A stretch of DNA of 64,000 nucleotides from Nitrospirota bacterium (GCA_020851375.1 JADZCV010000022.1:10814-74813), one strand, 5' to 3'. Positions 752 through 53,529 are shown, numbered from the stretch's first letter. Translations and numbers: made by a program. Notes: generated from the sequence alone by a model not told the origin.

Positions 752-773
752 ATCATGAAGGAGAGTGATATTA

Positions 774-3617
774 ATGAACAATGTTCTTCTGATCAGAAAA
801 ATCCAGGCACTTCTTCATGACCCTCCTGAGAAGCCCATAATTCTCGGTAGAATAGGCCATGAAGGCAGGGCTAAAGAGATAATGAGAGAGCTTATAGGCG
901 ATGCGGCCGCGATTCCCGAAGATATTAAAACTGCCGATCATATTGCCTCAGCTGCCGACCGTATCAATCTGCCGAGAGATGAGCGATTTATATCTGATTT
1001 TCTCAGGAACCCTGAGATAATTCACTCCCTGTCAGGAAAAGGGTTTAATCTTGGCAGTCTGGCGCAAATAAACATAGATCACATAACTGATGATGTGGAC
1101 AGGGCAGTGGGAGAGCTTGCTGATAAATACAGGGGGGACTCAGAGAAGATTTATTTATCCCTGTGGAGAAGCCTCGTTGATATGTTGATTGAAGATGGTC
1201 AATCAAATTTAGGTCAACTCTGGGAGCTTCTTCCGGCAGATACGAGGATCCCTGATCATTCTATATGGGAGCATAAACGCGTCACATCAGCAATTGCCGG
1301 GGCATTGCCTAAACCTGCATTCCTCTTATTTGCTATTGGGCCTGTTCAGGAGTTCATTGCGACCGCACGAAAGACTCAAGACCTGTGGGCCGGCAGTTAT
1401 CTTCTGTCGTATCTTTCCTGGAGCGCGATGAAGGTGGTCGCAGAGGAATTTGGCCCAGACTGCCTTATATTCCCTGATCTCCACAGACAGCCATTTGTTG
1501 ATAAGTGGCTTATTGAAAAAGGCCTTGAAATTGATGCACTGGGAAATGAACTGCTGTCTTCCCCCACTCTTCCGAATCGTTTCCTGGCGGTCATTCCGGC
1601 AGAGTCAGTGAAGGATATTGCTGAGAAGGCAAAGAAACATGTACAGGAGACCTTTGCTTCTGCGTGTCGTGCGGTAAAAGAAAAGATGTCAGAGAAATGC
1701 GGCATACACCCATCGGCTGAATGGGATGAAATATGGCAGAGACAGACGGATGATTTTATAGAGACCTACTGGTCTGCGACTGTCATTGATGAAGTAGAAG
1801 ATATTGATGGCTTTATCGCTGAATATAAACGGTTGATGGGAACCTCAAGTGAATGGCCGTTTGATAACCTGCTCAGGGCTTACGAGAGGGGTTTTAAGCC
1901 CAATATAGGCACTGTGTATGCTCAGATTTACAGGCTTACTGAAAAAACGCTTGGCAGCAGAAAAGCCATCAGGGATTTTAAACAACAGGACGAGCCGAAT
2001 CACAAATGCACGTTGTGTGGCTTAAGGGAGCCTGTGCATCCCGGGATGTTTAACAATCAGACTTGCAGGGAAGAATTCGGGGCGTTAACAGGGTTCTGGC
2101 GGGAAAACGTGATGCCAGCTTTCCCGCAGATCAGGCGAACTGAGAGGTTATGCGGTATTTGTGTAACGAAACGGCTTGCGGCATCGTCTTTTTTCAGAGA
2201 GCAGATGGGACTTGATATCTCCAACTCATTCCCATCCGTCAGCATGGTAGCAACAGCTTCATTTAAAGAAAAGGTTATAAAAAATATTTCTCATCCGGAA
2301 ATCAATACAAGAGCAAACGAATTTATTTTCATTTTAAACACCTTATTTGAAGGTAAGAAGGAACGTATGAACGGCGAACCACTTCCGATGGTGCGACGCA
2401 TGTGCAATAATCCTGGAACAGTTGCGTTGGAAAATAAAGATATCGCTCATAAGTTTGCGTCTATAGAGGGCGATTGGCTCTACGAAGATTCTTTCAGAGA
2501 GTCGCTTAAAGATGATATCCCTAATTACTCAGAAGAACTGTGCAATGCAGCTCAAGCAGCGCTAAAAAAACTCCTTCAGGCGGCAAAGAAAATTGATATT
2601 GATCAACCATCAAAATATTATGCAGTGTTTCTCATGGACGGCGACAACATGGGCAAGTGGCTGTCAGGAGAGAATGCCCCAACGATTGGGGAAATTATGC
2701 ATCCCATTGTCAGAGACGGCCTTGAACCCAAAGAGTGGGATACTCTTCTTACGATGAAACGGCCTCTCAACCCCTCCCTTCACCTTGCCACCAGCAAGGC
2801 ACTGAGAGACTTCTCCCTTCATGTTGCAAGGGAGATTGTAGAAAAAGATCATCTCGGTAAACTGGTCTATGCCGGCGGAGATGATGTTCTGGCGTTTGTG
2901 AATCTCAAGGATTTACCAGAGGTAATGAGAAAGTTGCGGGCCTGTTTTTCAGGGAGTTTGATCGTGAATGAAGAAACCAGCAAGGTTGATATTGATTTTA
3001 AAGAAGGGCGGGGATTTATTCCTGTTGATGGGGAGGGTGTGCCGCTTAACATTGAGAATAATAAAAATAAAATTAACGGCTTCAGACTCTCAATGGGGAC
3101 AAAGGCAACGGCAAGCATGGGGGTTGTAATTGCTCATCATAATTCCAACCTTGCAAAAGTGCTTGATGATGTAAGACGTTGTGAAAAGGAAGCTAAGAAC
3201 TTGAAAGACAAAAACGCTTTTTGTATCTCCCTTGCCAAACGCTCAGGCGGCACAGAATCTGTCAGTGCAAAGTGGTATTATGATTCCGAAAAAGAGGGGA
3301 TTTTTGAGCCAATTCCTCTCCTCAGGGAATGGGCGGATGCTTTTTATAATGATCACATGTCACCAAAGATGGTCTACACCTTTAGAACAGAGACGACGGG
3401 ATTGGAAGGGAAAGATTTGCCTCGTGGGGCTGTTAGGCATGAACTCCTTCGTATAGCCGACAGACAGCGGATTAAAAAAAACAAAGGCTTCAATAAAGAG
3501 ACAATGGAGAAAATGGTTGTACGAATCATAAAGTTTCACGAATCAGGGCTTAGCCTGGAGAAGGTTAGCGTATTTCTTTCTGTAGCTGCATTTCTCGGAC
3601 GGGAGGGGAACAGGTGA
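774..3617 (+). CDS. cas10: Cas10/Cmr2, type III large subunit
   Basis: 947 aa from ATG 774, with AAGGAG 8 nt upstream (track ORF starts at GTG 765). N-terminal LLHDPPEKP and ADHIASAADR are HD-like, CTLCG...CGICVTKR is a zinc finger, and YAGGDDVLAF is the Palm/cyclase motif. Confidence 0.93.
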   Translation: MNNVLLIRKIQALLHDPPEKPIILGRIGHEGRAKEIMRELIGDAAAIPEDIKTADHIASAADRINLPRDERFISDFLRNPEIIHSLSGKGFNLGSLAQINIDHITDDVDRAVGELADKYRGDSEKIYLSLWRSLVDMLIEDGQSNLGQLWELLPADTRIPDHSIWEHKRVTSAIAGALPKPAFLLFAIGPVQEFIATARKTQDLWAGSYLLSYLSWSAMKVVAEEFGPDCLIFPDLHRQPFVDKWLIEKGLEIDALGNELLSSPTLPNRFLAVIPAESVKDIAEKAKKHVQETFASACRAVKEKMSEKCGIHPSAEWDEIWQRQTDDFIETYWSATVIDEVEDIDGFIAEYKRLMGTSSEWPFDNLLRAYERGFKPNIGTVYAQIYRLTEKTLGSRKAIRDFKQQDEPNHKCTLCGLREPVHPGMFNNQTCREEFGALTGFWRENVMPAFPQIRRTERLCGICVTKRLAASSFFREQMGLDISNSFPSVSMVATASFKEKVIKNISHPEINTRANEFIFILNTLFEGKKERMNGEPLPMVRRMCNNPGTVALENKDIAHKFASIEGDWLYEDSFRESLKDDIPNYSEELCNAAQAALKKLLQAAKKIDIDQPSKYYAVFLMDGDNMGKWLSGENAPTIGEIMHPIVRDGLEPKEWDTLLTMKRPLNPSLHLATSKALRDFSLHVAREIVEKDHLGKLVYAGGDDVLAFVNLKDLPEVMRKLRACFSGSLIVNEETSKVDIDFKEGRGFIPVDGEGVPLNIENNKNKINGFRLSMGTKATASMGVVIAHHNSNLAKVLDDVRRCEKEAKNLKDKNAFCISLAKRSGGTESVSAKWYYDSEKEGIFEPIPLLREWADAFYNDHMSPKMVYTFRTETTGLEGKDLPRGAVRHELLRIADRQRIKKNKGFNKETMEKMVVRIIKFHESGLSLEKVSVFLSVAAFLGREGNR

Positions 3618-4744
3618 AGTTATTCATAGAGCCGAATGATGTCCTCATGTTCAGGGATGGAAGGCCGTTTGCGGGTGGAGATGACCATTTTGCTCGTGGA
3701 GTATTCCCCCCATCGCCGGCCACGTTCTATGGGGCATTCCGCTCCCATATCCTGAGCCATAACTGGCCTGAGTTTAACAGGTTTAAGTCTGAGCCGGAAC
3801 AAATCCCGGAGAATGTGCGGACTGAAATAGGAACACCAAATGAATTAGGTATACTTTATATATGTCAGTTTACGCTAGCGAAAAGAAACGCCAGTGGCAT
3901 TAAACAGTTCTTCCCCATGCCAAAAGATGTTGTGAAGGAGAAGGGCAGGGAGGAAAGTAAATTGAACCTGTTAATGCCTAAGGACTTATCAGGGAGTAAA
4001 ACGTTGACAGATATGCCGTATGGATTGAATAATATGTGGCTTCCTGTAGAGACCCCGAGGGAAGCTGTTTCAGGATATTTGTCGTCAGAAGATATGAGTA
4101 AATATCTGTTTGGGGAACCGCCCTTCAAATGTATAAATCAGGATGAGTTATTTAAGAATGAAGAACGAACAGGTATCCAAAAAAGCAGAATGACACGAAG
4201 TGTTGAAACAGGACGGCTTTACAGTGTTGAGTATTTCAGGTTGAATGAGGATGTTGGTTTTGCGATTGACTTTGGGAATGCATCTCTGATTCCGTCTAAC
4301 GGTATTCTTCGGCTTGGGGGCGACAACCGTTCAGCCCGATATTTAGTAACATCATGGGATGAGCTTTCTACAGACCGCATAAGGAAGAAGATTGCCGACA
4401 CCAAACGTTTCAAGCTGGTGTTAACTACTCCCGCCATATTTAATAAAGGCTGGTTGCCTGGCTGGATAAATGGTGATACCAGGCAAGGTCAGATTGAAGG
4501 TGCCATTGTGAAGTTGGTCACCGCATGTGTTGGAAAACCAATAGGCATCGGTGGTTATGATTTTGCTAACAATAGGTCAAAGGTGATGAAGAAGGCCGCA
4601 CCAGCCGGCAGCGTGTATTATTTTGAATTTGTTAATGGCAGTGTTGATGCTCTCTTCGAAAAGATGTGGCTTAAATCAATAAGCGATGAACGGGCAAAGG
4701 AAGGATTTGGGATAACATTGATAGGAGGTTTTGACTATGTTTAA
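3614..4744 (+). CDS. cmr3: Cmr3 (Cas5-family RAMP)
   Basis: N-terminus MKLFIEPNDVLMFRDGRPF and C-terminal GFGITLIGG are typical of Cmr3. It has a 4-nt overlap with cas10. Confidence 0.85.
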   Translation: MKLFIEPNDVLMFRDGRPFAGGDDHFARGVFPPSPATFYGAFRSHILSHNWPEFNRFKSEPEQIPENVRTEIGTPNELGILYICQFTLAKRNASGIKQFFPMPKDVVKEKGREESKLNLLMPKDLSGSKTLTDMPYGLNNMWLPVETPREAVSGYLSSEDMSKYLFGEPPFKCINQDELFKNEERTGIQKSRMTRSVETGRLYSVEYFRLNEDVGFAIDFGNASLIPSNGILRLGGDNRSARYLVTSWDELSTDRIRKKIADTKRFKLVLTTPAIFNKGWLPGWINGDTRQGQIEGAIVKLVTACVGKPIGIGGYDFANNRSKVMKKAAPAGSVYYFEFVNGSVDALFEKMWLKSISDERAKEGFGITLIGGFDYV

Positions 4745-5654
4745 AGAGGCAAAGGTGATGTTTATTTATACGGAAACGTCGCTCCATTGTGGAAGCGGTA
4801 CAAGTCTCGGCGTCATTGACCTGCCGATACAACGGGAGAAATATACGGATTACCCTGTCTGCCAGGCATCAGGAATAAAGGGTGTGGTTAGGGAATGGTT
4901 TGATAATAAGTATGGCGAAAGGGACTCCAAAATCAAATATACCTTTGGCCCGGACTTCGGCAGAGGGGACAGTGAGGCACATGCAGGAGCTGCTACCTTT
5001 ACTGACGGACGTCTTCTGTTATTTCCTGTCCGTTCCCTGAACAGTGTCTTTGCCTATACTACATCTGTCTTTGCATTAAGCAGGCTCAGGAGAGATTTAG
5101 AAATGGCAGGGGAAAGTGTTGGGTGGAAAGTTCCGGCAGAGTCTGACAAGATATTGGGTGTTTCGGAGAGCAAGGTTAAGACAGGGGACAACAAAGTGGT
5201 GCTTGAGGAATACACCTTTGATTTTCAGCTGGATGAAGGTGTTAAAGCAATAGCTGAATGGATTGCATCCAATGCCATCCCGCAAGGAGATGAGTATAAC
5301 TTCTGGCGTCAAAAGGTAAAGACAGATTTAATAATACTGCCGGAAGATGCATTCGGGGACTTTGTAAAACTTTCAACTGAGGTTCAGGCAAGGATAAGGA
5401 TTAACAATGATACAAAGACCGTGGACAAAGGCGCATTATTTTATGAAGAGGCATTGCCGTGTGATTCACTGCTTTACTCTGTGGTAATGGCGCATGATCC
5501 TGCTTGTGATAATGCAAAAAGGCCGACTGACCTTCAGGACTCGACGGATGTAATGAAATTTGTAAGCGAAATAAAAAGCAAACGCCTGCAATTTGGTGGA
5601 GATGCTACAATCGGCAAGGGCATCGTGAATGTCAATTTCCTGAATGGGAGGTAA
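4737..5654 (+). CDS. cmr4: Cmr4 (Cas7-family backbone/target RNase subunit)
   Basis: ETSLHCGSG...GVIDLPIQRE and the C-terminal GGDATIGKGIV glycine loop. AGGAGG lies 7 nt upstream of ATG 4737. Confidence 0.9.
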   Translation: MFKEAKVMFIYTETSLHCGSGTSLGVIDLPIQREKYTDYPVCQASGIKGVVREWFDNKYGERDSKIKYTFGPDFGRGDSEAHAGAATFTDGRLLLFPVRSLNSVFAYTTSVFALSRLRRDLEMAGESVGWKVPAESDKILGVSESKVKTGDNKVVLEEYTFDFQLDEGVKAIAEWIASNAIPQGDEYNFWRQKVKTDLIILPEDAFGDFVKLSTEVQARIRINNDTKTVDKGALFYEEALPCDSLLYSVVMAHDPACDNAKRPTDLQDSTDVMKFVSEIKSKRLQFGGDATIGKGIVNVNFLNGR

Positions 5655-5659
5655 TAGCT

Positions 5660-6052
5660 ATGATAAAGTCAAAAGAACAAGAAAGGGCAAAGAAGGCATG
5701 GGAATTGGCGAATTCAGTTTCTGTCGGCATAATAGATAAATATTCATCATTAGCCAAAAGCGCACCGGTTATGATACTTACAAATGGGCTGGGGCAGACA
5801 CTTGCTTTTTTCATCTCAAAATCCAACGGCAAAAATGAATACACTCTCCTTTATCGACATATTAACGAATGGCTTGATGATAACATCTCGTGGACGCCAA
5901 ATAATGAAATTGGTAATGATTTGATTGAAAAAGTGATTAATGAAAAATCTCAGATTTATAGAATGGTTACAGAAGAGACATTAGCTTTTCTCTCATGGAT
6001 TAAGAGATTTGCAACAGCCTTAACGCCTGATACAAAGGAGGCAGCAGAATGA
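5660..6052 (+). CDS. cmr5: Cmr5 (Cas11 small subunit)
   Basis: 130-aa helical protein with the SAPVMILTNGLGQTLAF motif, positioned between cmr4 and cmr6. Confidence 0.8.
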   Translation: MIKSKEQERAKKAWELANSVSVGIIDKYSSLAKSAPVMILTNGLGQTLAFFISKSNGKNEYTLLYRHINEWLDDNISWTPNNEIGNDLIEKVINEKSQIYRMVTEETLAFLSWIKRFATALTPDTKEAAE

Positions 6053-7107
6053 AGCTTCCACTACCTGGGGATACACGGTCAGTGTTTAAAGATAATAATG
6101 TTCTTTTCAAGACAAGCAATCTCGGTTTGTTGTTCAATAAGTATGTTAACTCATGGCAAAACGGTTGGCAGATGACGGAGGAGGATTCTAAGAAATTCCG
6201 TCAGTCTGTGTCGGATATTAAATTTTCGAAGGAATATATTGAAAATGTGTTAAAGCGCCAGCAGATGATGATTAATAACTTAAAAGATTCCGGCTGGCAT
6301 GTTGAATTCTTCACAGCAAAAACCGACAGCCGTCTTATCATTGGCCTTGGCGGCACAAGTGTGATTGAAACAGGAATGACACTACACCCGTTATACGGCT
6401 TTCCATATTTGCCCGGCAGCGGACTGAAGGGACTGGCAAGGGGATATGCTGAAATAGGAGTTGAGTCTAAGCCGTCAGCCGATGAATTGAGGGAAGTGTT
6501 TGGTTCTGAAAAGAAAGACGCTCCTGCTGTCAACAACATACAGGGAAAAGTATTCTTCATGGACGGATTACCAGCAACCTTTCCAAAACTTGATCTTGAT
6601 ATTATGAACCCGCACTATGGCGAATATTATCGGGGAGGAAAACCCCCGGCAGATTATCTGAACCCTGTACCTGTAACATTTCTAACTGTTGCATCTGAGC
6701 AGCCCTTTTTATTTGCCGTATTTTCAAGGGATAAAGCCCTTTCAGAAAAAGCAAAACAATGGCTCACCGGCGGTCTGACCGATCTCGGGGCTGGTGGTAA
6801 GACAAATGTAGGTTACGGTTATTTTAAGATAGACGTCACATTGCAAACACAGTCTCAGCCAGGTATAGCAAAGGTAACCAAAGCCTCTCCAATGGATGCC
6901 TTATTGGAAAGGGTTAAACAGTGTCGTCAACCAGGCGATAAGCACATTCTTCAAAAGGTATTTGATGATGCATGGAAGATAGAAGGTTTAGACAGGAAAG
7001 AATTATTAGGACAGATAAGACTACAACTCCCTGATACGATGAAGAAAAACGATAAAATAATATCGTTTCTGAAGGAAAAAGAAAAAGAGTCAGGAATAAC
7101 TAATTAA
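6049..7107 (+). CDS. cmr6: Cmr6 (Cas7-family RAMP) with a ~90-aa C-terminal tail
   Basis: GLGGTSVIETGMTLHPLYGFPYLPGSGLKGLARG and the G-rich loop GAGGKTNVGYGYF. About 90 further residues follow that loop. Confidence 0.88.
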   Translation: MKLPLPGDTRSVFKDNNVLFKTSNLGLLFNKYVNSWQNGWQMTEEDSKKFRQSVSDIKFSKEYIENVLKRQQMMINNLKDSGWHVEFFTAKTDSRLIIGLGGTSVIETGMTLHPLYGFPYLPGSGLKGLARGYAEIGVESKPSADELREVFGSEKKDAPAVNNIQGKVFFMDGLPATFPKLDLDIMNPHYGEYYRGGKPPADYLNPVPVTFLTVASEQPFLFAVFSRDKALSEKAKQWLTGGLTDLGAGGKTNVGYGYFKIDVTLQTQSQPGIAKVTKASPMDALLERVKQCRQPGDKHILQKVFDDAWKIEGLDRKELLGQIRLQLPDTMKKNDKIISFLKEKEKESGITN

Positions 7108-7117
7108 TAACCAGTCT

Positions 7118-8248
7118 ATGAAAATACACGTTTGCCTTGTATCAGCTCAGCCCATACCAAATCTTATCCCTCTCAGGATGGATGAGTTGAGCCCTGAGAA
7201 GGTGATTTTGCTTGAAAGCAAGGACGTTAAAGCTCAGGCACAAAGAATAGAACAGGTTATAAAAACCTGGGGAATTAAAGTGGTCAGATGCCCGATAGAA
7301 CCTTATGATCTTGAATCTGCACGTGAGACATGCCTTAACATCCTCGCCGAGATAGATAAGGATGAAGTTACACTCAATGTAACTGGTGGTACAAAGATTA
7401 TGGCATTAGCGGCTTTTGAAGTCTTCAGGGAAATGAAAAGACCAATCATATATGTGGATACCCAGAACAGGAATATACAAACTCTATCTCCTGCACAAAA
7501 GGAGTTAAAATTCAAAGGGGTTATTAAAGTTAAGCCCTATCTTGCAGTTTATGGGCAGGACATTGTGGGAGAAAATACATTTCTTGATATTGTTAAGAAG
7601 CACAGGCCAATGATGCAAAGGCTGATAAAAGATATAGCCATTTTTGAACCTGTCATAAGCGTATGGAACACAGTTTATGCTGTCCCTGCCAGGAATACAA
7701 AAAGATATCCTTTCCATATTGATATAGAAAGCGGACACACGTCCTGGAAAGCCTTTGGAAAACTGACTGATTTATTTGAGACTGGTGGTATTGTACAACT
7801 TGCTGATGGGAAATTGATATTTCCAACCGAAGTGGATACCATGTTTGCCTCCGGAGACTGGCTTTCAGAGTTTGTCTTCGATACCGTATTGAACCTTTCT
7901 GTGACAGATGTCCATATGGAAGTAGATGTCAAATGGGACAGAAAGGGACATGAACCGACAACAAATAACTACGATGTAGTATTTACCTGTAATAATCAAT
8001 TATATCTTATTGAATGTAAGACCAAACACTTTGAGGGTAAAGAGAAGGAAGGTAGTAATACCGATCTAATATATAAATTGGACAGTCTTAAAGAAGCTAC
8101 CGGCGGATTATATGGTAAGGGGATGCTTGTCTCTTACAGAAAACTGACCAACGCTCAGATTTCCCGTCTTGAAGCCAATGGACTTAAATACTGCCATGGA
8201 GTTGGCCTTAAGAATTTAGCAGACAAAATAAAAGAGTGGATAAGGTAA
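7118..8248 (+). CDS. card1: Card1/Can2-type cOA-activated effector (N-terminal CARF, DUF1887-like, plus C-terminal PD-(D/E)xK nuclease)
   Basis: MKIHVCLVSAQPIPNLIPL...LNVTGGTK is a CARF-type Rossmann N-terminus. C-terminal GDWLSEFVFD...YDVVFTCNNQLYLIECKTK fits a D...ExK nuclease core. It lies immediately downstream of cmr6. Confidence 0.8.
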   Translation: MKIHVCLVSAQPIPNLIPLRMDELSPEKVILLESKDVKAQAQRIEQVIKTWGIKVVRCPIEPYDLESARETCLNILAEIDKDEVTLNVTGGTKIMALAAFEVFREMKRPIIYVDTQNRNIQTLSPAQKELKFKGVIKVKPYLAVYGQDIVGENTFLDIVKKHRPMMQRLIKDIAIFEPVISVWNTVYAVPARNTKRYPFHIDIESGHTSWKAFGKLTDLFETGGIVQLADGKLIFPTEVDTMFASGDWLSEFVFDTVLNLSVTDVHMEVDVKWDRKGHEPTTNNYDVVFTCNNQLYLIECKTKHFEGKEKEGSNTDLIYKLDSLKEATGGLYGKGMLVSYRKLTNAQISRLEANGLKYCHGVGLKNLADKIKEWIR

Positions 8249-8598
8249 TAGCTTGTGGGTGTGCTATGCCCATGATAACCACTACTGCTATCCCTATACA
8301 GACGTTAATTGAGATGAAAGATAACTCAAACAGGCCGCAAGATATTGCTGATGTGTTCTATAAACCACTATTTTATTACCGCCCAGCTGGAGTTTTTTTA
8401 CAAGGCGATGCCGAAGAAGGCCAGGGCGATAAGGGAAGGGTTGAAAAGAGGAGAGTTGTGAAATATAAACACCTGAAACTGGATCAGAATAAGATTGATT
8501 TTGCTATGAGATACTTTGGTGTTGACACAGAGCAGAAGGCTGTTGACATGGCGCTTTCTGTGTTAATGGAAGAGGAACAGATTGTGAAAGTCATGTAG
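8236..8598 (+). pseudogene. Composite/degenerate ORF with a nucleotidyltransferase C-terminal fragment followed by a VapB (DUF2191-like) antitoxin segment
   Basis: IPIQTLIEMKDNSNRPQDIADV resembles the C-terminal motif of small nucleotidyltransferases. KHLKLDQNKIDFAMRYFGVDTEQKAVDMALSVLMEEE resembles VapB, with a possible GTG start at 8458. The expected VapB tail (LLKGALKGDD) continues in another frame after the stop. Confidence 0.35.
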
Positions 8599-8645: not shown

Positions 8646-8693
8646 ATGACAGAAAAAGTAATTATTGATACGTCATGCAAAAAGGGTATTTGA
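8646..8693 (+). pseudogene. Truncated PIN/VapC remnant (15 codons)
   Basis: MTEKVIIDTSCKKGI then a stop. VIIDTS is the typical PIN N-terminal strand with the first catalytic Asp, and it sits just downstream of the VapB-like segment. Confidence 0.3.
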
Positions 8694-8771
8694 AAGCAGC
8701 ATCAGATATGTCCTTGTCTGAGTTGGCGATTAAGTTGGAGATTAATTGACAATTCAGATAAAGAATCTTCC

Positions 8772-8951
8772 ATGAAACCAATTTCTGATGCAGAGGCGGA
8801 AACAAGAATAAGGGCATGGGCTGATGTGACAATGCTGTCCATTGAGTTAAAGCGGGCTGTTCTAAAGCAGCGAAATCCTGAATGCAGTGAAGATGAAATC
8901 AGGGAACTTCTGCGCAAAGAGCTTTCACGTGCGAAGGATGATTATAAGTGA
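8772..8951 (+). CDS. Small 59-aa hypothetical protein (paralogue of the interrupted ORF at 9454-9705)
   Basis: ATG 8772 to TGA 8949-8951: MKPISDAEAETRIRAWADVTMLSIELKRAVLKQRNPECSEDEIRELL... It is below the track's length cut-off and has a 4-nt overlap with the next ORF. Confidence 0.4.
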   Translation: MKPISDAEAETRIRAWADVTMLSIELKRAVLKQRNPECSEDEIRELLRKELSRAKDDYK

Positions 8952-9148
8952 ATGATAATCCACTCCTGCAATATCTGAGAGAGTTATGCAGTTTTTTAGA
9001 GACCTCCAATATTGAATATATACTCGAAGGATGGAAAATTGAGGCAGTTTGTTCAGGCAAGGGCAGAGAGCAATTCAACACAGAGGTGATTCCTCCTGCT
9101 GATGTAATAAAGTTTGGTGAAATAATTAAATCAAAGTTGAAGTTATAA
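8948..9148 (+). pseudogene. Probable N-terminal fragment of a small nucleotidyltransferase
   Basis: LLQYLRELCSFLETSNIEYILEG resembles the N-terminus of MNT/DUF-type nucleotidyltransferases, but the GG/S...D.D core is missing and the ORF is only 66 aa. Confidence 0.3.
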
Positions 9149-9169: not shown

Positions 9170-9424
9170 GTGGCTGAACTAATAATCATTGAACTGAGTT
9201 CATTTTATTCTGGGACCGGCACCGCCAAACTCTCCTCCATTCATGCCTATGTCAATAAAGCTCAGGAACTGGCAGGCGAGGGGAACGACGTAGTCCTCAC
9301 CGGCCCGGCTCCGGTCTGGCTCTATCTCAAAATAGCCCATGCCCTTCACGGCAAGGCACGGAAGCTGGTATATCGCTCTCCGGTGACGGGGGATGTTACC
9401 ATATTCGACCACTCGCCTTCTTGA
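9170..9424 (+). CDS. csx3: Csx3-like protein (Crn3 ring-nuclease family), 84 aa
   Basis: DVVLTGPAPVWLYLKIAHALHGKARKLVYRSPVTGDVTIFDHS parallels my recollection of the archaeal Csx3 core (VVISGRGPIWLH..LAH.YHH....VYDPRLG.VVV.SHS). It has a GTG start and lies inside a type III locus. Confidence 0.6.
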   Translation: MAELIIIELSSFYSGTGTAKLSSIHAYVNKAQELAGEGNDVVLTGPAPVWLYLKIAHALHGKARKLVYRSPVTGDVTIFDHSPS

Positions 9425-9740: not shown

Positions 9741-10040
9741 ATGGAACATCAGGATATGAGAATATTAAGTAAAGAAGAGAAACGGATACTTTCCCAGGCA
9801 CTATGGGATTTAAAACTTACGCCGGAGGAGTTTCTTGAAATAGTAGAAGGGAAAAGTTCGCGAGAATGGCCTGAGAGGGGTTTTTGTGTTGCAAGAATGC
9901 TTGAATACATTAACTGGTTTGACATTGTCAGGATTATAAAACCACGAGAGATATGTAAGCTATGGGATGGTGCGAGGAAATTTGTGCGGAGCAAGTCAAT
10001 AATAGAAGGGATGGATTTTGCCTGCAGAATACTACGATAA
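9741..10040 (+). CDS. Small partner protein of the AbiEii-type nucleotidyltransferase (putative antitoxin)
   Basis: 99 aa, overlapping the start of the downstream AbiEii-like gene. The ALWDLKLTPEEFLEIVEG...MLEYINWFDIV pattern resembles domains I recall upstream of AbiEii toxins. Confidence 0.5.
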   Translation: MEHQDMRILSKEEKRILSQALWDLKLTPEEFLEIVEGKSSREWPERGFCVARMLEYINWFDIVRIIKPREICKLWDGARKFVRSKSIIEGMDFACRILR

Positions 10041-10668
10041 AATACTTTATCCTTTACAGGATAAGGTGATTCCTGCATTTAAAGACTCTCCATTTTACCT
10101 GACTGGTGGAACAGCCCTTTCGAGAGGTTACTATAACCACAGATATTCTGATGATCTGGATTATTTCGTTAATGATCATGATGATTTCCACAGGATTGCA
10201 GAAAGACAGATTGAGAAATTAAGAGGCATATTTACTGACGTTACGATTGCGGTTAAAGATGTAAGCTATTACAGGATTTTTGTCGGCAGAGAAAGCTTAA
10301 AGGTGGAGTTGATAAATGATGTGCCGTCCCATATTGGCGGTAAGGTTGAACATCCTCTGCTCGGCATTATAGATTCAAAGGAAAATATACTTGCCAATAA
10401 GATTACCGCTGTCGTTGACCGGGCTCTGCCCAAGGATATAGTTGATGTGTTCTACCTGCTGAAAGATGGTTTAAGCCTGAAAAAGGCATTGTGCGATGCT
10501 GAGAGTAAGGCAGCGGGTATCTCACCGCTCTTAATTGCAAAGATATTTGCTGAATTTAACTATGCCATCTTAGGTACGGAAATAAAGTGGATAGACCCTG
10601 TATCCATTGAAGCTATTAAGCAGTACCTCAATGACATTTCCCTTTCCATCGTCGAAGGTACTATTTAA
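10018..10668 (+). CDS. Nucleotidyltransferase AbiEii/AbiGii toxin family protein
   Basis: FYLTGGTALSRGYYNHRYSDDLDYF is the GGTAL...R.S.DLD motif of DUF1814/AbiEii. It has a TTG start and overlaps the upstream ORF. Confidence 0.78.
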   Translation: MPAEYYDKILYPLQDKVIPAFKDSPFYLTGGTALSRGYYNHRYSDDLDYFVNDHDDFHRIAERQIEKLRGIFTDVTIAVKDVSYYRIFVGRESLKVELINDVPSHIGGKVEHPLLGIIDSKENILANKITAVVDRALPKDIVDVFYLLKDGLSLKKALCDAESKAAGISPLLIAKIFAEFNYAILGTEIKWIDPVSIEAIKQYLNDISLSIVEGTI

Positions 10669-10738
10669 ATGTAAACAGAAACATTTCTGAAACATTTCTT
10701 TTGCTGACACACCCCTTCATTCCAATTATCCTGTTTAC

Positions 10739-11020
10739 ATGAACAGGACTCTCTATCTTATTGCCTATGACATTACCGATAGCAGGCGTCTTAACAATGT
10801 GCGGTATTTCCTAAAAGGATACAGCACTGGCGGGCAGAAGTCTGTGTATGAGTGTTTCCTGACGGATGGCGAGCTTCGCTATGTGGTTAGAAAGATTGAA
10901 GGCATTATAAGAAGGGAAGAGGACAGGGTTCATGTCTTTACAATGGAAGGTCGCAGCAGGACTCATGCGCTGGGAATAGCAGTTCAGCCAAGGGATCCGG
11001 CATATTTCTACATAGGATAA
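10739..11020 (+). CDS. cas2: Cas2 (copy a)
   Basis: 93 aa with MNRTLYLIAYDITDSRRLNNVRYFLKGY...VYECFL, a ferredoxin-fold Cas2 signature with the conserved Asp in YDIT. Confidence 0.87.
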   Translation: MNRTLYLIAYDITDSRRLNNVRYFLKGYSTGGQKSVYECFLTDGELRYVVRKIEGIIRREEDRVHVFTMEGRSRTHALGIAVQPRDPAYFYIG

Positions 11021-11024
11021 TCTG

Positions 11025-12005
11025 ATGGGTACTCTGTATATTGACAGAAAAGGCTCTCACATAAAGCTTGACGGCAATGCCCTTGCCTTCTACTCAAACG
11101 GAGAAAGGGAAGGCATTGTGCCGGTTAAGCCGCTGAAAAGGGTTGTGGTTATCGGCAGTATGACGATTGATACACCGGTGCTGCACAGGTTCTCTGATGA
11201 GGGGGTAAGCGTGATCTTCCTGTCAGGGAAAAGGGCGAGGTTCTGCGGGATGATGCACGGCAGGCTGCACAATAATGGCATTCTGAGGGTAAGGCAGTAT
11301 GAGAAGTCGGGTGATTCTACTTTTAATCTTGAATTATCCTCTGACATTGTTCGCAGGAAAATACTGGCCCAGTCTGGTTTTTTTAAGGAGGCACTTAAGG
11401 AGCGTGATGACTTGAGATTAGCGCTGAAAACAGCGTTGGATACCCTGGAGAAGGTGCTGGGGAGTGTTAATGCGGCAGGCAACAATCTCGATTCGCTCAG
11501 AGGTTATGAAGGCGGGGCATCAGCAGCATATTTTTCTGCCTTCACCAAACTATTCCCTGACTCCCTCAATTTTACCAAAAGGACAAGGCGTCCGCCGGAG
11601 GATCCTGTCAATGCAATCCTGTCCCTCTGCTATACCCTTCTCCACTATGAAATGGTGCGGGAGATCGAGGTCATCGGGCTTGACCCGACTATAGGGTTTT
11701 ATCATCAGTTTGAATATGGCAGGGAGTCGCTTGCATGTGATCTTGTGGAGGCGTACAGACCTTCTGTTGATGCGTTTGTCTGGAAGATATTCAGGGAGAG
11801 GATATTTGCCGCAAGGGATTTTTCGCATGAAGATGAGAGACCGGGATGTTATCTAAAGAAAAACAGCAGGAGTCGTTTTTATCCTTTGTATGAGGAGTGG
11901 GCGCAGGAGATGAGGCCTAAATATGTCGAAGAAGTTCAGGCCCTTGCACGCAGGATTATGGATGGAGAGGATACATTCTATGGACCGGACACTGTATTTA
12001 AATGA
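11025..12005 (+). CDS. cas1: Cas1 (copy a, canonical motifs)
   Basis: 326 aa. TLYIDRKG...RVVVIG N-domain, plus GYEGGASAAYF, DPVNAILSLCY and GFYHQFEYGRESLACDLVEAYRPSVD. Confidence 0.92.
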   Translation: MGTLYIDRKGSHIKLDGNALAFYSNGEREGIVPVKPLKRVVVIGSMTIDTPVLHRFSDEGVSVIFLSGKRARFCGMMHGRLHNNGILRVRQYEKSGDSTFNLELSSDIVRRKILAQSGFFKEALKERDDLRLALKTALDTLEKVLGSVNAAGNNLDSLRGYEGGASAAYFSAFTKLFPDSLNFTKRTRRPPEDPVNAILSLCYTLLHYEMVREIEVIGLDPTIGFYHQFEYGRESLACDLVEAYRPSVDAFVWKIFRERIFAARDFSHEDERPGCYLKKNSRSRFYPLYEEWAQEMRPKYVEEVQALARRIMDGEDTFYGPDTVFK

Positions 12006-12816
12006 GAATAAGGGATTAGAGGTGACAAGAGACGGCCCTTCTGTCTGGATTAAAGAAGATGGAAAGGCCGGCAGGCGCATCCCGGTGCGTTTGGTCGGAC
12101 GTGTCGTCGTAATTGGCAACCTCAGGATGGATGCTGGTGTGATTACCCTGTTCACTGAAAATGACATACCCGTAACATTCATGAACAGGAAAGGCAAAGA
12201 GGTTGCTGTAACAATCCCATATAATCACAACCTGCCCCGTCATTATGAGGAGCAGAGGGTATTGCTTGATACTGAGGCGAATGAAAACAGGGTCAGGGCA
12301 TGGATATATTCGAGGCGGAGAGGGTTTCATTTAAGCACTGTGAAAAGGCTGTCTCCTGTTGTGGCCGCAGATTTTGTGTCAAAGGGATTCAGGGAGGCTG
12401 ATTACGGAGACTTCATAAAGAAATTAAGGCCGAGGAGTGAGGAGCAATGGGTGGTTGTCTGCGGGTTAATTGGCAACCTTTTTAAGGAGATCATAATCGG
12501 GGGCCTCATGAAAAGCGACCTTGATCCGCATATGGGAATTCTATACAGAAGGCACAACTTCGGTCTTGCCCTTGACATCTGCCACATCATTGGGCCTGAG
12601 ATAGACCTACACGCGGTACAGTTTTTCAGGCGAAACATGGATAATAACCTGATGCAGAAGGGGAATAATGGCTGGATTGTCTCACAGGAAGGGATGAAGG
12701 ATATAATACACCGTTTTGAGAACAGGAGGAAAGCGCTCCATGAAAAGATCGGGAATATTATTGATGACATATTCCGTCTCATGAGGGAATTGATGGTGGG
12801 TGTGGGGGTTGAGTAA
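11980..12816 (+). CDS. Divergent Cas1 paralogue (Cas1'), probably catalytically inactive
   Basis: 278 aa from ATG 11980, overlapping cas1a by 26 nt. The N-domain is clearly Cas1-like (MDRTLYLNENKG...GRVVVIGNLRMD...IPVTFM). The helical domain reads GILYRRHNFGLALDICHIIGPEID where Cas1a has GFYH...ACDLVEAYRPSVD. Confidence 0.75.
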   Translation: MDRTLYLNENKGLEVTRDGPSVWIKEDGKAGRRIPVRLVGRVVVIGNLRMDAGVITLFTENDIPVTFMNRKGKEVAVTIPYNHNLPRHYEEQRVLLDTEANENRVRAWIYSRRRGFHLSTVKRLSPVVAADFVSKGFREADYGDFIKKLRPRSEEQWVVVCGLIGNLFKEIIIGGLMKSDLDPHMGILYRRHNFGLALDICHIIGPEIDLHAVQFFRRNMDNNLMQKGNNGWIVSQEGMKDIIHRFENRRKALHEKIGNIIDDIFRLMRELMVGVGVE

Positions 12817-12828
12817 GGGAATCCAAAC

Positions 12829-13107
12829 ATGACAGCAAACTATCTGGTATGCTATGACATTACAAATGAGAGACGCCTCTCGCGTGTCTTCAGATTGATG
12901 AAACAAAGGGGTATTCATATCCAGTACTCTGTTTTTTACTGTAGATTAACATGGCAGAATCTTGTAGAATTGAAGGGCAAATTAAACGGGATTATCAATC
13001 CACGGGAAGATGATGTACGGATTTATCCGCTGCCGGGTGAGATGAAAGTCGTGGTGATGGGGCTTGGCGACAGGATACCGGAAGGAGTCAGTATATTCCT
13101 GCAATGA
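12829..13107 (+). CDS. cas2: Cas2 (copy b)
   Basis: 92 aa with MTANYLVCYDITNERRLSRVFRLMKQRGIHIQYSVFYC. It has an ATGA overlap with cas6. Confidence 0.87.
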   Translation: MTANYLVCYDITNERRLSRVFRLMKQRGIHIQYSVFYCRLTWQNLVELKGKLNGIINPREDDVRIYPLPGEMKVVVMGLGDRIPEGVSIFLQ

Positions 13108-14060
13108 TTATCAGATACCAGAAATATACCTTTACCATTGAGGCATCTGAACCACTCACCCTGCCACCCTATAAGGGGGCAACCTTCAGGGGGGCCTTTG
13201 GAAGTGCATTCAGGAGGATTGTCTGTGCACTGAAGAAAAATGACTGCTCGGAATGTCTTCTGAAGACAAGGTGCGTCTATGTCTATGTGTTCGAGACATT
13301 GCCTCCGGATGGTGCAGAGATGATGGGTATGAATAAGTATGAGGCGGTGCCACACCCCTTTATAATTGAACCACCCCTGGACAGCCGCTGCAACTTCAAG
13401 AGTGGTGAGAACCTTCAATTTAACCTGATACTGACAGGGAGGGGTATAGACTATCTGCCGTATTTTATATGCACATTCGAAGAACTCGGGTGCATTGGCA
13501 TTGGTAAGGGTAGAGGTAAGTATAAATTGCAGGGTGTAGAGGACGGTGTTGAGCAGGTGTATTCCATTGATAGTAAAGTTTTCAGAAATACCGGATCAAG
13601 AGAGCTGCTTATTCCTGAGGAGTTTGAGTCTTGTCATGATGCCGAAAGTAGTTCAGGTGTTGCTGAAGACAGGATTACCCTGCGATTTTTAACGCCGGCG
13701 AGGATTAAACATCAGAGAAGTCTTACCACGGAGCTTGAATTTCATGTGCTGATCAGAAACCTTCTGAGAAGGCTTGGCCTGATGTATTATTTCCACTGTG
13801 GAGGAGCGGAACCTTCATGGGACTACAGGGGCTTAATAAAAGAGGCGGAACAGGTTACCATTGAGAAGGAATCCCTGCGGTGGCAGGACTGGGAGAGGTA
13901 TTCGTCAAGACAGGATGTAAGGATGAAGATGGGTGGTGTTACAGGGGAAGTGACTTACCGGGGGAATTTAAAACCATTTTATGCTATTCTAAAGGCAGGT
14001 GAGATGTTACATGTTGGAAAGGGAACAAGCTTTGGACTCGGCAAATATGAGATTCAATAG
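13104..14060 (+). CDS. cas6: Cas6 crRNA endoribonuclease
   Basis: 318 aa with LPPYKGATFRGAFG near the N-terminus and the C-terminal glycine-rich loop HVGKGTSFGLGKYE. It lies immediately upstream of the array. Confidence 0.85.
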   Translation: MIIRYQKYTFTIEASEPLTLPPYKGATFRGAFGSAFRRIVCALKKNDCSECLLKTRCVYVYVFETLPPDGAEMMGMNKYEAVPHPFIIEPPLDSRCNFKSGENLQFNLILTGRGIDYLPYFICTFEELGCIGIGKGRGKYKLQGVEDGVEQVYSIDSKVFRNTGSRELLIPEEFESCHDAESSSGVAEDRITLRFLTPARIKHQRSLTTELEFHVLIRNLLRRLGLMYYFHCGGAEPSWDYRGLIKEAEQVTIEKESLRWQDWERYSSRQDVRMKMGGVTGEVTYRGNLKPFYAILKAGEMLHVGKGTSFGLGKYEIQ

Positions 14061-14161
14061 GCTCTTTGACAACTTAATACTGGTTTGTAGACAAAGTCGC
14101 GAAATTCTGTATATGCAACCTTGCAATAATTTGATAATAAGGGATATTTTGCAATGGGGCT
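14061..14161 (+). promoter_or_regulatory. CRISPR leader (A/T-rich, between cas6 stop and first repeat)
   Basis: Its position next to the non-degenerate end of the array. The degenerate repeat is at the far (3') end. Confidence 0.5.
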
Positions 14162-15818
14162 ATAAGAATGCAGACCTCAGATAGAAGGGATTGCGACCCC
14201 CACGAAGAGCCCCCTACACCTGGCCCTCCTCCATAAGAATGCAGACCTCAGATAGAAGGGATTGCGACTGGGGAATGGAGCCAGGTCCAAGTAGGCCACA
14301 TCATAAGAATGCAGACCTCAGATAGAAGGGATTGCGACACAACACACCTCTACAGGAATCAGATACTATAGGATAAGAATGCAGACCTCAGATAGAAGGG
14401 ATTGCGACACCATCCCCCCCAGCAAACCCAAACCCGCTCTTCTATAAGAATGCAGACCTCAGATAGAAGGGATTGCGACTCTCTGTCTTATCCTTCACCA
14501 ATTCCACTTCTTCATAAGAATGCAGACCTCAGATAGAAGGGATTGCGACGGAGTGGGGGGAGGGCGCTGAAGTTTTATGCCTCTCATGATAAGAATGCAG
14601 ACCTCAGATAGAAGGGATTGCGACCTATATAATAACATATTACGTTGTGGGTATCAAATAAGAATGCAGACCTCAGATAGAAGGGATTGCGACCCCGGAG
14701 CCAAAGGACCAACTCCTGTTCCACCATCCCATAAGAATGCAGACCTCAGATAGAAGGGATTGCGACGTGCCATTGATAATGTATTCTGGCACACTACCCT
14801 ATAAGAATGCAGACCTCAGATAGAAGGGATTGCGACATTATCCCTCATTATGAAGTGCTTGTTCAATAATCATAAGAATGCAGACCTCAGATAGAAGGGA
14901 TTGCGACACTCCCAGGGTGTATGGAAGCCCTTGCATATAGTCATAAGAATGCAGACCTCAGATAGAAGGGATTGCGACTGTTCAAATGCTTTTTCCTTCC
15001 TCTGAGCTCTTATAAGAATGCAGACCTCAGATAGAAGGGATTGCGACCACACGTGCTATATTATATCCATTTTCAGAATCATATAAGAATGCAGACCTCA
15101 GATAGAAGGGATTGCGACTATCCAATGCCTTAGCATGTGCTTCTAAGTGGGAATAAGAATGCAGACCTCAGATAGAAGGGATTGCGACTTTTCTTATTCA
15201 TTATACTTCCTTTCTCACTCGTATTATAAGAATGCAGACCTCAGATAGAAGGGATTGCGACCTACCATACTTTATTCCTCCTTTGTTGGATTGAATATAA
15301 GAATGCAGACCTCAGATAGAAGGGATTGCGACGATTATAATTTCAGCATCCCCTGAAATACAACCCATAAGAATGCAGACCTCAGATAGAAGGGATTGCG
15401 ACCGTTTCTCTTTCTATATGAAAGCCATCCCAAAACTATAAGAATGCAGACCTCAGATAGAAGGGATTGCGACGCTGATATAGGCGCATATGTCACGCTT
15501 GTGCTTGATAAGAATGCAGACCTCAGATAGAAGGGATTGCGACGGCGCCTGTGGCCTTCATTACGCCGTCCAGGTATAAGAATGCAGACCTCAGATAGAA
15601 GGGATTGCGACTGCATACCGGACAATGTCCTCTGTAGCTTTGCAATAAGAATGCAGACCTCAGATAGAAGGGATTGCGACTTACTCTGTAATACCCTTTG
15701 CGACAAGGATTAATAAGAATGCAGACCTCAGATAGAAGGGATTGCGACTTCTTACCTTCTACCTTCTTACCTTCTACCTTCTATAAGAATGCAGACCTCA
15801 CATAGCAGGGATTGCGAC
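14162..15818 (+). CRISPR. CRISPR array of 24 repeats of 36 nt (ATAAGAATGCAGACCTCAGATAGAAGGGATTGCGAC) and 23 spacers of 32-39 nt
   Basis: Repeats counted one by one (starts 14162, 14233, 14303 ... 15713, 15783). The last repeat has 2 mismatches (CACATAGCAGGG). The repeat 3' end ATTGCGAC matches the 8-nt 5' crRNA tag type known for Cas6-processed type III crRNAs, so transcription is on the + strand. Confidence 0.98.
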
Positions 15819-39824: not shown

Positions 39825-39900
39825 GGGGGGTTAGCTCAGTTGGGAGAGCGTGGCGTTCGCAACGCCAAGGTCGCCGGTTCGATCCCGGTACCCTCCACCA
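39825..39900 (+). tRNA. tRNA-Ala (anticodon CGC), CCA encoded
   Basis: The cloverleaf folds by hand: acceptor GGGGGGT/ACCCTCC with G3:U70, D arm GCTC/GAGC, anticodon arm TGGCG-TTCGCAA-CGCCA, and T arm GCCGG-TTCGATC-CCGGT. Confidence 0.95.
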
Positions 39901-53330: not shown

Positions 53331-53529
53331 AAATCCCCCCAGCCCCCCTTTTCTAAAGGGGGGAACTAATTTCCCTTTTAAAAGGAGAGCTAATTTTCCC
53401 CTTGAAAGGAGAACTAATTTCCCCCCTTGAAAGGAGAGCTAATTTTCCCCTTTGAAAGGGGAACTAATTTCCCCCCTTGAAAGGGGAACTAATTTCCCCC
53501 TTTGAAAAAGGGGGATTGAGGGGGATTTT
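53331..53529. repeat. Tandem array of ~7 short C-tract/G-tract hairpins (24-28-nt period) enclosed by AAATCCCCC...GGGGGATTT
   Basis: ccccccttttctaaagggggg-aactaatt-tcccttttaaaaggaga-gctaatt-ttccccttgaaaggaga-actaatt-... ending gggggattgagggggatttt. It starts 7 nt after the rhlE stop. Confidence 0.9.

Follow-up and report, generated by a model that had tools for sequence, protein, structure and literature searches.

A second Cas1 with an incomplete set of metal ligands in a conserved type III-B adaptation operon: a candidate non-catalytic integrase subunit

Introduction

What part can a second Cas1 play in an adaptation operon once it appears to have lost the residues that bind the catalytic metal? 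The question is raised by a stretch of 64,000 nucleotides (nt) from a Nitrospirota bacterium (GCA_020851375.1, JADZCV010000022.1:10814-74813), hereafter the window, in which the adaptation genes of a type III-B CRISPR system are arranged as cas2a-cas1a-cas1b-cas2b. To our knowledge, every CRISPR integrase with a characterised structure consists of Cas1 protomers that are identical and take on catalytic and non-catalytic roles only on assembly. The reading favoured here, at a probability of roughly 0.58, is that Cas1b represents a fixed non-catalytic subunit of a heteromeric Cas1-Cas2 integrase.

The adaptation genes and the elements that follow them are listed below, with protein lengths in amino acids (aa).

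10739-11020, plus strand: cas2a, 93 aa; Pfam Cas2 match, E 2e-16
11025-12005, plus strand: cas1a, 326 aa; Pfam Cas1 match over positions 1-283 of 283, E 1e-79
11980-12816, plus strand: cas1b (product Cas1'), 278 aa, start codon ATG at 11980; 26-nt overlap with cas1a
12829-13107, plus strand: cas2b, 92 aa; Pfam Cas2 match, E 7e-20
13104-14060, plus strand: cas6; Pfam CRISPR_Cas6 match, E 6e-20; ATGA overlap onto cas2b
14061-14161, plus strand: putative leader, placed by inference between the cas6 stop codon and the first repeat
14162-15818, plus strand: CRISPR array, with 23 spacers between 24 repeats of 36 nt (ATAAGAATGCAGACCTCAGATAGAAGGGATTGCGAC)

A first-pass annotation of this DNA had described four tightly packed open reading frames (ORFs), the 26-nt overlap of the two cas1 genes and the ATGA overlap of cas6, followed by the array, and all of these coordinates proved to be as claimed.

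Results and Discussion

Cas1a and Cas1b share a fold but not a catalytic residue set

Cas1a is a canonical, presumably catalytic Cas1. Its match to the Pfam family is full-length, and it scores 213 bits against TIGR00287, for which the cut-off is 71.7. The catalytic set is complete (E162, H227, D239 and E242), in agreement with the first-pass view that this protein keeps the catalytic blocks. Residue counts were made on 66 Cas1a and 59 Cas1b sequences, each from a different species. Among the 66 Cas1a members E162, N196, H227 and D239 are invariant, position 242 is Glu in 65 and Asp in one, and the Arg position (R245) is also essentially invariant. The best subtype models (NCBIfam) were those of types I-G, I-C and I-D, and the nearest solved structures are the Cas1 proteins of types I-C (8d3l), I-G (7mi4) and I-D (7cr6).

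The sequence and the structural model of Cas1b identify it as a true Cas1 paralogue, with both the N-terminal beta-sandwich and the C-terminal alpha-helical Cas1 domain. Residues 11-110 align with positions 6-106 of the Pfam Cas1 profile (PF01867, E 1e-15), a match that covers mainly the N-terminal domain and scores 58.2 against a gathering threshold of 22.3, while the 52.1 bits obtained against TIGR00287 fall below its curated equivalog cut-off (71.7). Comparison of the Cas1b and Cas1a families by hhalign gave a probability of 98.1% (E 6.6e-14) over 246 columns spanning both domains, and a HMMER profile of 31 homologues aligned Cas1b residues 28-249 to the Thermotoga maritima Cas1 structure 4xtk. 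The AlphaFold2 model has a predicted local distance difference test (pLDDT) score of 79.5, rising above 90 in the C-terminal helical domain, and the top 50 Foldseek matches to it in the PDB are all Cas1 or casposase proteins. The paralogy proposed from motifs in the N-terminal domains is thus upheld by both profile and model. A protein identical to the 278-aa Cas1b is present in the public collection (P0001).

The metal-binding catalytic residues of Escherichia coli Cas1 are E141, H208 and D221. The corresponding positions of Cas1b were mapped by hhalign and, separately, by the HMMER alignment to 4xtk. In the hhalign alignment N196 of Cas1a corresponds to V160, H227 to Y189, E242 to H202 and R245 to G205, whereas D239 is kept as D199; E162 falls into a three-residue gap of Cas1b or, in the HMMER alignment, opposite the unconserved K135. 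The second acidic ligand position, the counterpart of E. coli D221, holds neither Asp nor Glu in any of the 59 Cas1b sequences, being occupied by Tyr (30), His (18), Phe (3), Arg (2) or, in the rest, another residue. At the His position His occurs in 29 sequences, Asn in 12, Tyr in 11 and Phe in 4, while the Asn position carries Val or Ala and the Arg position Glu or Gly. Profile alignment therefore finds no complete Glu/His/Asp-or-Glu triad in Cas1b. The first-pass annotation had read the four substitutions by eye (Asn to Val, His to Tyr, acidic to His, Arg to Gly) and concluded that the integrase site seemed to be lost; each substitution was recovered by hhalign, although the loss is not total, as discussed below. 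Since Cas1b is a Cas1 at the level of fold but lacks the catalytic residues and scores below the equivalog cut-off, it is, by sequence, best called a Cas1-like pseudo-enzyme (Cas1') and not a Cas1 integrase.

Two further proteins were encountered among the homologues. P0152, a 272-aa representative of a 50% identity cluster, consists of a Cas1a-type N-terminal domain (residues 1-125) fused to a Cas1b-type C-terminal domain, and represents either a natural cas1a/cas1b recombination or deletion or an assembly artefact. The 12 apparent matches to the Cas1b N-terminus in P0236 were rejected as spurious, this being a repetitive protein of 2168 aa with weak Pfam Amphi-Trp and DUF4941 matches.

The four genes form one co-inherited operon under purifying selection

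Cas1b homologues form 217 clusters at 90% identity, almost all of 270-280 aa; at 50% identity, 72 clusters reach an E value of 1e-30 or lower. A scan at species level, with one genome per species, returned 71 loci, most commonly in Nitrospirota/Thermodesulfovibrionia and next in Syntrophorhabdaceae, including the cultured Syntrophorhabdus aromaticivorans UI; single metagenome-assembled genomes (MAGs) of Archaeoglobi, Deferribacteres, Aminicenantes and others have such a locus as well. Searches of a plasmid collection by tblastn, with Cas1b and with a divergent Cas1' of the kind described below, returned no match.

The order cas2a-cas1a-cas1b-cas2b is present in 52 of the 58 loci with enough flanking sequence. 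In the related loci cas6 usually adjoins, and Cmr genes and Card1 often lie upstream. Five related Nitrospira loci, which lack cas2a, and one locus in which cas1a is truncated depart from this order. The former (L065, L067, L068, L070 and L071, all Nitrospira sp. MAGs) read cas1a-cas1b-cas2b-cas6 and have no cas2a ORF upstream; the latter (L054) keeps cas1b-cas2b-cas6, with cas1a reduced to a 148-aa remnant and cas2a absent. An apparent loss of cas2a from the closest relative (L155-157) was discarded as a gene-calling artefact, as tblastn revealed an intact copy that is 91% identical to that of the window. In L155 and L156 this copy lies at 8707-8985 and is missed by the public gene calls, which give instead a spurious antisense ORF (L155, 8566-9018, minus strand) or a 58-aa fragment (L156, 8812-8988). 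The same two near-identical loci differ in the number of array repeat copies 3' of cas6, one in L155 and nine in L156, which is read as a collapsed array in the L155 assembly.

Gene junctions are conserved together with gene order. An overlap between cas1a and cas1b is present in 58 of 63 loci, most commonly of the 26 nt also seen in the window. At the next junction, 44 of 68 related loci have a 4-nt overlap of cas1b with cas2b, where the window has a 12-nt gap. These conserved overlaps fit translational coupling. Pairwise identities of the four adaptation proteins and Cas6 correlate across loci (r 0.77-0.91; r 0.80-0.91 for Cas6 against the four adaptation genes). Ratios of nonsynonymous to synonymous substitution (dN/dS), calculated by the Nei-Gojobori method on unsaturated pairs, were 0.14 for Cas2a, 0.139 for Cas1a, 0.131 for Cas1b, 0.153 for Cas2b and 0.165 for Cas6. 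Of these proteins Cas1b evolves fastest, with a mean pairwise identity of 0.41 compared to 0.59 for Cas1a. The genes cas2a-cas1a-cas1b-cas2b(-cas6) are one co-inherited type III-B adaptation operon.

These data bear directly on the suggestion that the second cas1-cas2 pair is a duplicate, either redundant or in decay, or else the remnant of another CRISPR locus. That rearrangements happen is evident from the truncated cas1a of L054 and from the P0152 chimera; nevertheless, Cas1b is under purifying selection equal to that on Cas1a, the order and the overlaps of the genes persist across phyla, and the window holds one effector module and one array, after which come housekeeping genes, so that this explanation is very improbable. 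In particular, a pseudogene or neutral copy is ruled out by the Cas1b dN/dS of 0.13, and a fused second locus by the single effector module, the single array and the order kept in 52 of 58 loci. The gene order for which the first-pass annotation proposed a search is thus widely conserved. Of the outcomes that it named as refuting, two do not apply: Cas1b is neither rare, pseudogenised nor neutrally evolving, and fusion with an unrelated locus by rearrangement is rejected by the conserved order and overlaps.

A wider Cas1' family and the origin of the operon

A scan of metagenomes with the Cas1a profile produced a graded series of loci, which were divided into four groups. Group A comprises close four-gene modules like that of the window. 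Group B, with about 28 loci, has the order cas2a-cas1a-X-cas2b, in which X stands for a Cas1-like protein that is 250-340 aa long, in most cases 255-280 aa. In group C, of about 10 loci, the genes cas2a-cas1a-cas2b are packed too tightly for a second Cas1, and group D is represented by canonical cas1-cas2 loci.

The group B protein is also predicted to have a Cas1 fold, aligning with Cas1a over both domains at 96.7% probability. The motifs of its N-terminal domain are kept, and its C-terminal domain has no conserved acidic/His motif. At least 229 clusters of homologues were found, including those of Rhodoferax and Polaromonas, and the genomic setting is again that of Cmr/Cas6/Card1 loci (type III-B; Burkholderiales and metagenomes). 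Because the A-type and B-type profiles match each other far better than either matches Cas1a, both were treated as one Cas1' superfamily. The divergent members occupy the slot between cas1 and cas2b in L083-L127 (about 28 loci), L152, L153 and L154. A Burkholderiales subgroup keeps DLCE, matching the DLxE motif, and has Trp at the His position. In L153 (6917-7225) and L154 (1347-1655) a gene of the Cas_VVA1548 family, whose name we take to come from a gene of Vibrio vulnificus YJ016, lies next to Card1 and an NTP_transf_2/HEPN pair.

The three-gene order cas2a-cas1-cas2b, in which one canonical Cas1 gene stands between two different Cas2 genes, was recorded in L082, L085, L086, L088, L094, L098, L107, L108, L122, L132 and L146, two of which adjoin Card1 or a NE0113-type CARF gene. 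In the two group D loci examined (L129 and L145) cas4 lies immediately 5' of cas1. A rough neighbour-joining tree, which carries no support values, places group D outside a clade of all two-Cas2 modules; one three-gene group is basal, and a few loci of this kind fall among the four-gene modules.

The most economical history suggested by these sequences is that a cas4-cas1-cas2 module gave rise to cas2a-cas1-cas2b, into which cas1' was inserted, with occasional later losses. As the canonical relatives are cas4-cas1-cas2 modules with a Cas2b-type Cas2, and as three-gene modules exist, cas2a occupies the cas4 slot, cas2b would be the ancestral cas2 and cas1b would be the insertion. The term 'mirror-duplicated', under which the operon had been annotated, thus probably fits its gene order and not its origin.

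Two distinct Cas2 proteins

Both Cas2 proteins score above the PF09827 cut-off and share 36% identity. The conserved Asp that ends strand beta-1 lies in the motif LIAYDIT in Cas2a and LVCYDIT in Cas2b, with YDI conserved in both families. Cas2a is the most conserved product of the module, with a mean pairwise identity of 0.70 in its family, and is characterised by the motifs YSTGGQKSVYEC and a conserved C-terminal tail. The Cas2b profile gives the Cas2 proteins of the canonical cas4-cas1-cas2 relatives a higher score than the Cas2a profile does, and by this measure Cas2b is apparently the orthologue of the Cas2 encoded 3' of cas1 in those relatives.

This assignment is relevant to a rival explanation, in which Cas1b, with Cas2b or alone, forms a separate, non-integrating accessory complex and is not an integrase protomer. 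Possible roles of such a complex are prespacer capture or protection, recognition of the leader or repeat in the manner of integration host factor (IHF), or regulation of Cas1a-Cas2a. The neighbouring genes do pair as cas2a-cas1a and cas1b-cas2b, the cas1b/cas2b junction with its 4-nt overlap is the tightest, Cas1b evolves faster than the other module genes, and three-gene modules work without Cas1'. However, it is Cas2b, and not Cas2a, that is orthologous to the Cas2 partnering a Cas1a-like Cas1 in canonical relatives, and the pairs seen in the gene order are for this reason not ancestral. Furthermore, conservation within Cas1' is highest, in both subfamilies, in the N-terminal domain, which in Cas1 is generally the domain of dimerisation and Cas2 contact, and the cas1a/cas1b overlap suggests coupled synthesis of the two Cas1 proteins. 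On balance an accessory complex is considered rather unlikely, though it is the most credible of the rivals weighed here.

A proposed heteromeric integrase

If Cas1b is instead a non-catalytic subunit of a heteromeric integrase, it would fill the Cas2-proximal, non-catalytic protomer position and Cas1a the distal, catalytic one, while the bridge at the centre would consist of Cas2a and Cas2b, probably paired as a heterodimer. The product would be an intrinsically asymmetric (Cas1a-Cas1b)2-Cas2a/Cas2b integrase, which would insert spacers at the leader-proximal repeat beside cas6. The arrangement follows the known architecture, in which a Cas2 dimer bridges two Cas1 dimers and the 3' ends of the prespacer enter the two distal Cas1 protomers, the other two protomers being non-catalytic (PMC7969031).

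The same components could be assembled differently. In a lobe-asymmetric Cas1a2-Cas2a/Cas2b-Cas1b2 complex, for which we know of no precedent, a catalytic Cas1a dimer would be placed next to Cas2a and a dead Cas1b dimer next to Cas2b; it would join only one end of the prespacer and leave the second strand transfer to a second complex or a host factor. Such an assembly is mirrored by the gene order, dissimilar Cas2 proteins would abolish two-fold symmetry in just this way, and both pairs are kept in 52 of the 58 species-level loci mentioned above. It is nonetheless improbable, as full-site integration in all characterised systems uses one active site per lobe (PMC7969031 and established knowledge). 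The long, regular arrays at related loci, and the 24 repeats in the window, further make it clear that complete integration occurs.

Several observations weigh against a fixed non-catalytic Cas1b. All 59 sequences have D199, the Asp that opens DLxE, H184 is kept in 56 of 59, and E139, which sits three to four residues (one helical turn) downstream of the expected Glu position, is Glu or Asp in 52 of 59 (about 88%). Half of the family retains His at the His position, and a residual or alternative metal site may exist in this subfamily, to judge by the residues conserved. Moreover, the three-gene modules imply that Cas1', and the five Nitrospira loci that Cas2a, is dispensable in some lineages. 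The hetero-oligomer put forward in the first-pass annotation, in which Cas1a would associate with Cas1b and Cas2a with Cas2b, is inferred indirectly from operon structure, overlaps and co-evolution and is plausible.

The retained residues are also the basis of an alternative in which Cas1b is still an enzyme, with a re-wired site (E139, H184 or H189, and D199) for integration or prespacer trimming. In addition to the invariance of D199 and the conservation of H184 and E139, high conservation around the former active site extends to R190, R191, N193 and F194. This alternative is unlikely: the position of the essential E. coli D221 is never acidic in Cas1b, the window protein has Tyr at the His position, and at these positions the divergent Cas1' in the equivalent slot conserves neither His nor Glu, so that the function shared by the Cas1' proteins cannot depend on those residues.

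A more speculative extension is that the additional subunits of a heteromeric integrase may supply the end discrimination or orientation given elsewhere by Cas4. Type III systems as a class need no protospacer adjacent motif (PAM). The idea draws on this, on the lack of Cas4 in the module and on its cas4-cas1-cas2 ancestry, and was prompted only by the position of cas2a in the cas4 slot. In its broadest form, namely that these operons constitute a large undescribed type III-B class with an obligate four-subunit asymmetric integrase, derived from a cas4-cas1-cas2 ancestor and replacing Cas4/PAM recognition by its own asymmetry, the proposal is tentative and should be regarded as doubtful.

Comparison with known adaptation modules

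In the canonical (Cas1)4(Cas2)2 integrases of E. coli (type I-E), Enterococcus faecalis (type II-A) and Synechocystis (type I-D), genes of both protein families likewise lie beside a leader and array. Cas1a shares the catalytic set of these integrases, and their non-catalytic protomers have the role proposed here for Cas1b (PMC7969031). The window differs from them in that the two roles are apparently split over two genes, one of which encodes a protein without the metal ligands, and in that two distinct Cas2 paralogues are present.

The Cas4-Cas1-Cas2 modules of types I-C, I-D and I-G contain the Cas1 proteins most similar to Cas1a, and the nearest metagenome relatives are of the cas4-cas1-cas2 kind. 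In the window, by contrast, cas2a lies directly 5' of cas1a, cas1b is placed between cas1 and cas2, and the accompanying effectors are those of type III-B, with Card1. No match to Cas4 was found among the ORFs at 9741-14060, and the operon is therefore not a Cas4-Cas1-Cas2 module. A departure of another kind from (Cas1)4(Cas2)2 is the type V-C mini-integrase, which consists of Cas1 only, without Cas2. The direction is opposite in the two cases, with type V-C losing subunits and the window module gaining and specialising them.

A partial precedent is provided by the type III-D system of V. vulnificus YJ016, an RT-Cas1-Cas2A-Cas2B adaptation operon (RT, reverse transcriptase) that also has two different Cas2 proteins, both of which are required for acquisition; its authors raise a Cas2A/Cas2B heterodimer as a possibility (PMC6821258). 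That Cas2 pair is about 70% identical and is encoded downstream of a single RT-Cas1 fusion (PMC6821258), whereas the window module has a second Cas1 and no reverse transcriptase. A search of full-text literature, outside which the main classification papers lay, returned no account of a cas2-cas1-cas1'-cas2 module and none of a Cas1 partner that is catalytically degenerate, the sole trace being an incidental gene string, 'cas2-cas1-cas1-RT-...', in a paper on Antarctic-soil metagenomes (PMC11742911).

Effector genes, array and neighbouring sequence

Upstream of the adaptation operon, the window carries the following effector genes.

765-3617, plus strand: cmr2/cas10; Pfam Cmr2_N and Cas10 palm2
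3614-4744, plus strand: cmr3; Pfam Cas_Cmr3
4731-5654, plus strand: cmr4-like RAMP gene; Pfam RAMP
5660-6052, plus strand: cmr5; Pfam Cas_Cmr5
6049-7107, plus strand: cmr6-like RAMP gene; Pfam RAMP
7118-8248, plus strand: card1; Pfam CARF_Card1 and Card1_endonuc

With Cmr2_N and palm2, Cas_Cmr3, two RAMPs, Cas_Cmr5, Cas6 and an array, all domains being recognised by Pfam, the system is of type III-B with a cyclic-oligoadenylate effector (Card1); Cmr1 was not identified within the window. The ATAAGAATGCAGACCTCAGATAGAAGGGATTGCGAC array consists of 23 exact repeat copies and one with two mismatches, none being expected by chance. The only degenerate copy is the last, at the end of the array far from cas6, and the leader was for this reason placed at the cas6 side, where 14061-14161 is the putative integration side. 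Beyond the array only housekeeping genes are found (UPF0182, FTR1, ClpB, DnaJ, IMPDH and GMP synthase), and the window is accordingly taken to hold one effector module, one array and one adaptation operon.

Between card1 and cas2a lie a Csx3-like fragment, an 84-aa ORF at 9170-9424 with a partial Csx3 match (E 5e-6), and an AbiEii-type nucleotidyltransferase toxin gene at 10018-10668. The latter is overlapped upstream by a 99-aa ORF without a Pfam match (9741-10040), possibly an antitoxin, and a 120-aa ORF downstream of card1 (8236-8598) has a weak VapB-antitoxin-like match. Just 5' of cas2a, at 10672-10705, a direct repeat GAAACATTTCT GAAACATTTCT is followed by TTTGCTGAC; this element is kept in the closest relative, L156 (about 8650-8680), and may represent an operator or promoter of the adaptation operon. 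In a promoter and terminator scan around the operon, sites were no commoner than in shuffled sequence. Elsewhere in the window, a tandem repeat with a 25-nt unit (GAACTAATTTCCCCCCTTGAAAGGA, about 5.9 copies) occupies intergenic positions 53360-53507, and a tRNA gene at 39825-39897 is the sole Rfam match above the gathering score.

Implications

The module is common, being represented by hundreds of protein clusters in Nitrospirota, Syntrophorhabdaceae, Burkholderiales and others. Where its second genes carry any public label, this is 'CRISPR-associated endonuclease Cas1' or 'hypothetical protein', by which the difference is hidden. Roles split between genes would test whether dimerisation, Cas2 docking and the handling of DNA ends are separable from catalysis, and a defined heteromeric integrase could serve directional molecular recording. 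With two distinct Cas2 proteins the complex would lose its two-fold symmetry, which bears directly on the orientation of new spacers in type III systems, which have neither PAM nor Cas4. Should the four-subunit integrase exist as tentatively proposed, its fixed asymmetry would choose the prespacer end that is joined first and so set the spacer orientation required for transcript-targeting type III immunity.

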